From positions 1 to 41,145 of IMG/VR virus record IMGVR_UViG_2531839440_000003: a stretch of 41,145 nt of DNA, one strand, 5' to 3'. The notes under the pieces were generated by a model. That model did no database searches and had not been told where the DNA came from. It saw only the letters and a list, made by a program, of their open reading frames with translations. This document shows positions 19,572-19,700 of the stretch, in pieces; positions within the stretch are counted from its first letter, which is position 1; the number at the start of each line of letters is the position of its first letter. The position numbers and the translations under genes are program-made. Source of the stretch: a virus. Lineage: Duplodnaviria; Heunggongvirae; Uroviricota; Caudoviricetes.

Positions 19572-19700
19572 ATGTGGAAACCTACAGGTGATAAGTTAAT
19601 CACCGCGTTGATTGACGGCAAGCCACAATACTTACGCATTGAAATGAGCGGTCAACATGTTGAAATGAGCGGTCAACATGCTCGATTGATTCGTGAGTAA
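19572..19700 (+). CDS. Small protein containing an in-frame 7-aa tandem duplication
   Basis: 42 aa, AGGAG RBS 6 nt upstream; MWKPTGDKLITALIDGKPQYLRIEMSGQHVEMSGQHARLIRE. Confidence 0.35.
   Translation: MWKPTGDKLITALIDGKPQYLRIEMSGQHVEMSGQHARLIRE
19640..19681 (+). repeat. Direct tandem repeat, 2 x 21 bp
   Basis: TGAAATGAGCGGTCAACATGT followed by TGAAATGAGCGGTCAACATGC. Confidence 0.85.

Follow-up and report, generated by a model that had tools for sequence, protein, structure and literature searches.

Morons are accessory genes that have been independently inserted between the late genes of lambdoid phages. Phage transcripts also carry hairpins that are processed by RNase III, such as the R sites of T7 and the sib element of lambda, and classical contingency tracts are made up of many copies of units of 1-8 nt. 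Phage morons are reportedly the subject of work by Juhala et al. in 2000. The closest positional counterpart of the locus described here is L33 of phage phiP27, a hypothetical late protein (phrog_1935) that is encoded in the slot between the lysis cassette and the gene for an HNH endonuclease.

Here we analyze a stretch of DNA of 41,145 nucleotides (hereafter the window), which represents a complete phiP27-like lambdoid prophage of E. coli and in which this same slot is taken up by a small ORF containing a perfect tandem duplication of 21 bp. The account that we favor, and that we consider likely, is that a one-off, in-frame duplication of seven codons took place in a genuine micro-gene that normally codes for 35 residues, and that it gave rise to a stable allele that would not act as a recognition site for terminase or at cos. 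Both the small gene and L33 end at the same junction, a '...GAGTAA' motif followed by a hairpin. As with morons, the gene is found in a variable cargo slot of the late operon, where unrelated small genes, including LT-II toxin genes, lie upstream of the hairpin; it is followed by a stem-loop, and it is present or absent between similar phages (phiP27 having L33). It may differ from morons in that a consensus scan recovered no sigma-70-like promoter on the + strand upstream of it and in that the hairpin, being devoid of a T-run, would not be a canonical intrinsic terminator. Unlike typical morons, it is also conserved in position across deeply diverged phages. With contingency loci and SSR phase variation it shares a tandem repeat in coding sequence whose copy number differs between close relatives; unlike them, it has an in-frame unit of 21 nt that is present in one or two copies on one haplotype, with no on/off switching.

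Gene context of the small ORF

The gene order of this region comprises two holins, an M15 endolysin, two small ORFs, the small gene, the HNH endonuclease gene, TerS and the large terminase. The features that we distinguish are the following:

19101-19214, + strand: ORF of 37 aa with a C-terminal hydrophobic segment, at the end of the lysis cassette (phrog_4493)
19216/19243-19398, + strand: ORF of 51-60 aa with a lipoprotein signal and an LVGC lipobox, at the end of the lysis cassette (phrog_7528)
19561-19565, + strand: Shine-Dalgarno sequence AGGAG, 6 nt before the ATG (direct reading)
19572-19700, + strand: predicted small protein-coding gene of 42 aa in the window, with an ancestral form of 35 aa (ORF listing, phrog_8025, homologues)
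19639-19659, + strand: repeat copy 1, TTGAAATGAGCGGTCAACATG (Tandem Repeats Finder and mismatch search)
19652-19663, no strand assigned: 12-bp perfect palindrome TCAACATGTTGA at the junction of copy 1 and copy 2 (read from the sequence)
19660-19680, + strand: repeat copy 2, identical to copy 1 at 21/21 positions (Tandem Repeats Finder and mismatch search)
19704-19741, + strand: conserved bipartite hairpin, directly after the stop codon (variants, covariation)
19762-20112, + strand: HNH endonuclease gene, a packaging accessory of P27/HK97-type terminases (phrog_144, E=2.5e-43; RefSeq)
20174-20183, no strand assigned: probable cos site (homology to the annotated phiP27 cos, misc_feature 'cos-site')
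20260-20742, + strand: terminase small subunit (TerS), P27 family (ORF listing, RefSeq annotation of the identical locus)
20742-22499, + strand: terminase large subunit (ORF listing, RefSeq annotation of the identical locus)

The two ORFs at the end of the lysis cassette, the second of which shows a weak Rz-like spanin match (E=0.048), may be unconventional equivalents of the spanins. The small gene ends 61 bp upstream of the HNH gene. Within the late operon it closes off the lysis/accessory region and directly precedes the packaging genes. A consensus scan of the + strand from 18900 to 20400, which is weak evidence either way, recovered no sigma-70-like promoter, and this is consistent with read-through late transcription; the small protein is probably translated from the late transcript via its own strong ribosome-binding site. 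In a pairwise alignment the probable cos is identical to that of phiP27 at 8/10 bases, with an identical upstream flank, and it lies beyond the HNH gene, between it and TerS, about 490 bp downstream of the repeat.

Examination of the gene contexts of diverged homologues shows that they are preceded by lysis or cargo genes and directly followed by the first gene of the packaging region, which, depending on the locus, is of the HNH/Terminase_4, ParB_N or Terminase_2 type. The Salmonella variant is a positional exception in being located after a tail-fibre assembly gene, near the prophage end. In close relatives, the small gene precedes ParB-type and other terminase modules. At the two most distant homologous loci (L038 ~2160-2188 and L050 ~1922-1950) a GC-rich segment followed by a T-run (gcgggttttttatta) occurs just before the ribosome-binding site that serves the 35-aa gene, which suggests that its expression at these loci depends on terminator read-through, i.e. 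late antitermination.

Relatives also code for toxins in this neighborhood. Toxin genes are found upstream of the 35-aa gene at L039 1750-2884 and L044 1-922. The genes for the heat-labile enterotoxin type II (Enterotoxin_a and LT-IIB) lie directly upstream of the 35-aa gene in some relatives, and Shiga-toxin genes (RIP and SLT_beta) lie just upstream of the lysis cassette in others.

Evidence for selection on the small gene

The ORF at 19572-19700 translates as MWKPTGDKLITALIDGKPQYLRIEMSGQHVEMSGQHARLIRE. An earlier note, made from the letters of the window alone, had described it as a 42-aa ORF with an AGGAG ribosome-binding site upstream of the HNH gene, and this description agrees with what we find. 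To obtain its homologues we searched 1.8 billion representative proteins exhaustively with a profile and ran a further profile search against a 5.8-billion-protein collection. The homologues that retain 45-63% amino-acid identity (P0034, P0036, P0038, P0039 and P0040) keep exactly 35 codons, and a GGAG is preserved 6-7 nt upstream of the start in every one of the diverged homologues in this range; the Salmonella variant, for its part, is 46 aa in length. Pairwise Nei-Gojobori estimates for nearly all pairs that include a diverged homologue yielded a pS of 0.5-0.95, i.e. near saturation, as against a pN of 0.12-0.34 (for instance, pS 0.83 and pN 0.12 for P0036 versus P0034). The close relatives taken alone offer a weak coding signal, with 5 synonymous versus 6 non-synonymous variable sites and non-coding flanks that are about equally conserved. 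Given that in the diverged homologues pN is far below pS, the length is kept and the GGAG is retained, the comparison argues that the small ORF is a genuine gene under purifying selection at the amino-acid level.

The protein encoded in the window is identical to RefSeq WP_000265820.1, which in E. coli genomes is annotated as a 'hypothetical protein' at this very locus; the one-copy (35-aa) form is left uncalled by PGAP. A 35-residue ORF that is often skipped by annotation pipelines is genuinely under selection and keeps a fixed position across many temperate phages, a small addition to the phage micro-proteins on record.

Protein family and predicted fold

The only family match of the small protein is to phrog_8025 (E=4.7e-32, 110 bits), with residues 1-42 aligned to profile positions 1-42 of 42. 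Searches of Pfam, NCBIfam, PADLOC and PDB sequences recovered no match for the small protein, L33, P0032 or the 87-aa neighbor, and a literature search for the peptide sequence returned nothing relevant. Our analysis adds to phrog_8025 that the 42-aa sequence represents a duplication allele derived from an ancestor of 35 aa, that the family is under purifying selection, that it has a fixed genome position and that it is homologous to the C-terminal domain of long L33-like proteins.

AlphaFold2, when provided with the family alignment, predicts that the 35-aa form adopts a three-stranded antiparallel beta-meander (pLDDT 87.8), with strands at residues 6-14, 17-26 and 29-34. In this model the duplicated heptad (residues 24-30) runs from the last part of strand 2 through the turn into the first part of strand 3. 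For the 42-aa form, four short strands are predicted with low confidence (pLDDT 59.9); the lower value may stem from a real perturbation of the fold or merely from the alignment gap at the duplicated position. A Foldseek search of the PDB with the 35-aa model recovered just generic beta-sheet matches with E>1.

Comparison with hhalign related the family to the C-terminal 33 residues of P0032, an L33-like protein of 131 aa (probability 97.5%, E=6.6e-12). A C-terminal domain of this kind, ~33 residues in length, is found in the long L33-like (phrog_1935) proteins typified by P0032 (L037 3001-3396) and in those of L079, L093 and L124, and pN reaches up to 0.42 in the Nei-Gojobori comparisons that involve the C-terminus of the fusion protein. 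The predicted beta-meander module therefore appears, from these alignments, to occur both free-standing and as a domain of longer proteins, which take up this same slot in other phages. The L33 of phiP27 is without the C-terminal domain of its longer relatives, and in its body hhalign detects no significant resemblance to the small protein (probability 1%). We had also considered the small protein as an internal repeat of a 'DGENQYL' motif in the body of L33, and this was rejected at the same hhalign probability of 1%. The presence of the domain in the long proteins and its absence from phiP27 L33 suggest that it was released or lost via deletion at the shared '...GAGTAA' plus hairpin junction. 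Given that in related phages this slot is taken up by unrelated genes, we infer an accessory rather than an essential role; our best guess is that the product is a small accessory protein that binds a partner and would be non-essential for lytic growth.

The duplicated unit

Tandem Repeats Finder reports positions 19639-19680 as a perfect tandem array (period 21, 2.0 copies, 100% matches, no indels). The two copies of TTGAAATGAGCGGTCAACATG are the sole occurrences of this unit in the 41 kb of the window when up to 3 mismatches are allowed, with 0 expected from 100 shuffles. At the protein level the duplication corresponds to residues 24-30 and 31-37, i.e. EMSGQHV and EMSGQHA. The earlier note had already drawn attention to two adjacent 21-bp copies that give rise to EMSGQHV-EMSGQHA, and both Tandem Repeats Finder and direct reading bear this out; the phase that it assigned to the repeat (TGAAATG...ATG(T/C)) starts one base late, as a result of which a real and perfect repeat seemed to match at 20/21 positions.

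One-copy relatives align to the window with a clean gap of 21 bp, copy 1 being the extra unit. Microhomology at the borders of the duplicated unit, which would be a signature of slippage, was sought and not found: the bases bordering the 42-bp array do not extend the repeat. The palindrome TCAACATGTTGA is missing from the one-copy alleles and is present only in the derived allele, and we judge it to be an incidental by-product of the duplication.

Copy number and haplotype among relatives

A search of 5,426 complete E. coli genomes recovered sixteen with the same two-copy sequence, along with eighteen near-identical loci that contain a single unit and are set apart by the clean 21-bp gap with otherwise almost no differences. 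A slightly more diverged group, which includes E. coli W and others, has one unit. In the protein collection, the commonest 35-aa sequence is present on >1000 contigs and is accompanied by many further variants, with the 42-aa form being present on 477 contigs; the 42-aa allele is also listed in 857 blocks of the assembly index, and IMG/VR gives the same one-/two-copy picture as the protein collection. Since all the divergent homologues carry one unit, the duplication is the derived state. Copy number, which the earlier note had suggested comparing across related prophages, thus does vary, between one and two.

Alleles with more than two copies were not recovered: an exact search for the three-copy junction found none in IMG/VR, the metagenome contigs or the species-representative genomes, a synthetic three-copy query against the 5,426 complete E. 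coli genomes retrieved one- and two-copy loci only, and no 49-aa protein was obtained in the protein searches or is among the cluster members listed. A search for related loci in the species-representative genomes yielded none that was confirmed; the taxonomic range comes from the names of the protein sources and from phage records.

The local gene order is the same in all ten independent places that have the 42-aa allele. A 2.2-kb backbone alignment of 26 loci further reveals that the two-copy loci differ from the window by 0-9 SNPs, with two outliers that diverge in the holin region only and resemble the window over the stretch of about -900 to +560 relative to the ORF. Some one-copy loci come close to this backbone, with differences of 4 SNPs (L015) and 7 SNPs (L002) over the 2.2 kb. 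The two copies are identical to each other in 15/16 two-copy loci, the remaining one having a single substitution in copy 1. Given that one lineage has since gained this point mutation, the two-copy state is best described as a stably inherited allele, as judged from the alignments, rather than as a hypervariable tract. That three copies are never seen in these collections and that the two-copy loci share one local haplotype point to a single past duplication rather than to ongoing slippage. An occasional contraction back to one copy is possible, given that a few one-copy loci are just 4-7 SNPs away.

In the account that we favor, a single event, either replication slippage or unequal exchange, would have copied the EMSGQHA segment, which reaches from strand 2 across the turn into strand 3, and the 42-aa allele would then have spread vertically and by recombination among E. 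coli prophages. The repeat itself would amount to a neutral-looking indel allele, at most a lineage marker for a prophage that is common in enterotoxigenic E. coli.

Three further observations concern these loci. The P0039 allele (L043 3001-3108) is a mosaic: its 5' two-thirds are diverged, and it is identical to the window from GAAATGAGCGG onward. As GAAATGAGCGG starts at the third base of the repeat unit, this mosaic would place a recombination breakpoint within the small gene, close to where the duplicated unit begins. The E. coli strain E200139 (NZ_CM128604.1) carries both alleles in different prophages, at 4331924-4332184 and 416111-416279. Finally, certain IMG/VR contigs end inside the ORF (L011, L019 and L028); we rejected the idea that these are physical genome ends, as the end positions differ, and the segment being common to several co-resident prophages, which breaks short-read assemblies, accounts for contigs that break there.

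An adaptive origin for the 42-aa variant strikes us as rather unlikely. It would hold that an added fourth strand or second hairpin alters partner binding, and that the variant was selected and for this reason spread. The allele is common, with its 477 contigs and 857 assembly-index blocks, and it occurs on two or more prophage backbones with different holin regions and terminase types; the frame is preserved and both copies are still intact, and AlphaFold draws four strands for the longer form. However, the confidence of that model is low (pLDDT 59.9 versus 87.8), the duplication shows no independent recurrence and there are no further length variants, and the spread can be explained if the allele hitch-hiked along with a prophage that is successful in lineages of enterotoxigenic E. 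coli.

We regard as quite improbable a contingency locus in which frequent slipped-strand expansion and contraction would switch between length variants of the micro-protein that differ in activity. The earlier note had viewed the repeat as prone to slippage that preserves the frame. Copy number does differ between close relatives, with one- and two-copy alleles on almost identical prophage backbones and with a two-copy and a one-copy locus in different prophages of E200139, and the change is always in frame. Ongoing slippage is not supported: there are only two allelic states, with no allele of three or more copies in all the collections searched and no 49-aa protein from the protein searches or among the cluster members listed, and the two-copy loci are on a single local haplotype, with a point mutation in one copy in one lineage. 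Moreover, two copies of a 21-nt unit are a poor substrate for slippage in comparison with the many short units of classical contingency tracts.

It is highly improbable, and we reject on comparative grounds, that the repeat or the palindrome TCAACATGTTGA is a binding site for terminase, HNH or another DNA-binding protein with the ORF being incidental, as the earlier note had offered in the form of a terminase-proximal site: the repeat does lie 61-123 bp upstream of the HNH/terminase module and a perfect 12-bp palindrome does arise at the copy junction, but the cos predicted by phiP27 homology is about 490 bp downstream, past the HNH gene, the ancestral one-copy alleles are without the palindrome, the locus evolves in a protein-like manner indicative of purifying selection (synonymous sites are saturated, with amino-acid sequence, length and Shine-Dalgarno kept), the gene family precedes at least four unrelated types of packaging module (HNH/Terminase_4, ParB_N, Nu1/gpA and Terminase_2), and phiP27, whose HNH/terminase module is of this type, carries L33 in the slot and is free of such a repeat.

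A conserved hairpin at the boundary with the packaging genes

The small gene is directly followed by a hairpin with the sequence GCATTA-CA-GCAGCTCTTC-AGT-GAGGGGCTGC-GA-TAATG, which consists of an outer stem (GCATTA/TAATG(Y)), a 2x2 internal loop, a 10-bp inner stem and a 3-nt loop. A pattern search of the fetched loci recovered it at 152 places in 37 sequence variants; the outer stem was fixed by the search pattern. The inner stem is 98% paired, with compensatory double changes at three positions that the pattern left free, and one U-G wobble is nearly invariant. RNAalifold, run on eleven diverse instances, among them the pattern-independent one at L050, predicts 17 pairs, 6 of which have compensatory changes. 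The pairing, the compensatory changes and the conserved U-G wobble together indicate an RNA structure formed on the sense strand.

The hairpin is conserved by covariation across phages of E. coli, Salmonella, Klebsiella and Edwardsiella, and is present, unannotated, in phiP27, Fels-1, cdtI, phi80 and Klebsiella and Edwardsiella phages. It occurs 3' of many unrelated cargo genes and 5' of many types of packaging module. It is without a T-run and was not called terminator-like in the consensus scan, which is weak evidence either way. No Rfam match with E<=1 overlaps 19700-19745, nor did Rfam at a permissive threshold yield a match at the small ORF, and a literature search for a conserved stem-loop between lysis and terminase genes returned nothing relevant. 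We accordingly present it as a candidate sense-strand RNA element, predicted from its covariation, at the boundary between the lysis/cargo and packaging genes.

In several respects the hairpin is comparable to the RNase III processing sites of phage transcripts: it has a bipartite stem of ~16-17 bp with a small internal loop, it is intergenic on what would be a polycistronic phage transcript, and it shows RNA-level conservation, with covariation and G-U wobbles. It is unlike RNase III substrates in that its stem is shorter than the classical ~20 bp and in that it belongs to no Rfam family. We treat the resemblance, which may be superficial, as a lead only.

We tentatively suggest that the 35-aa gene and the hairpin might together make up an uncharacterized, widely conserved junction module of enterobacterial lambdoid phages, which would combine a functional RNA with a late accessory micro-protein, the 42-aa form being a structure-function variant of the latter. 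If this is true, the hairpin could be a processing, stability or attenuation signal that separates the expression of lysis and cargo genes from that of the packaging genes. The hairpin also marks a hot spot for the insertion of cargo genes, e.g. those of the LT-II toxin. It is of more interest than the repeat, and lends itself to a direct test of whether it serves the late operon as a signal for RNA processing or insulation.

Other features of the window and its relatives

A weak match to the SAM_alpha riboswitch at 20316-20372 on the + strand, inside the TerS gene, scores 24.6 bits versus a gathering threshold of 36 (E=0.0054) and is most likely a chance match. Among the relatives, L005 (PP818812.1, 'Actinobacillus phage vB_Apl-pPE4') has 92.6% nucleotide identity to the prophage segment, including a one-copy small gene. 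Its recorded host, Actinobacillus pleuropneumoniae, is an unexpected label for such a close relative of an E. coli prophage. The window further contains imperfect tandem repeats at 2165-2248 (21 bp x 4.0, with 74% matches), at 7718-7801 (23 bp x 3.7, with 68% matches) and at 7841-7874 (12 bp x 2.8). The pair of repeats at 7.7-7.9 kb lies inside an ORF of 339 aa (7322-8341) and could represent the iterons of a replication origin.
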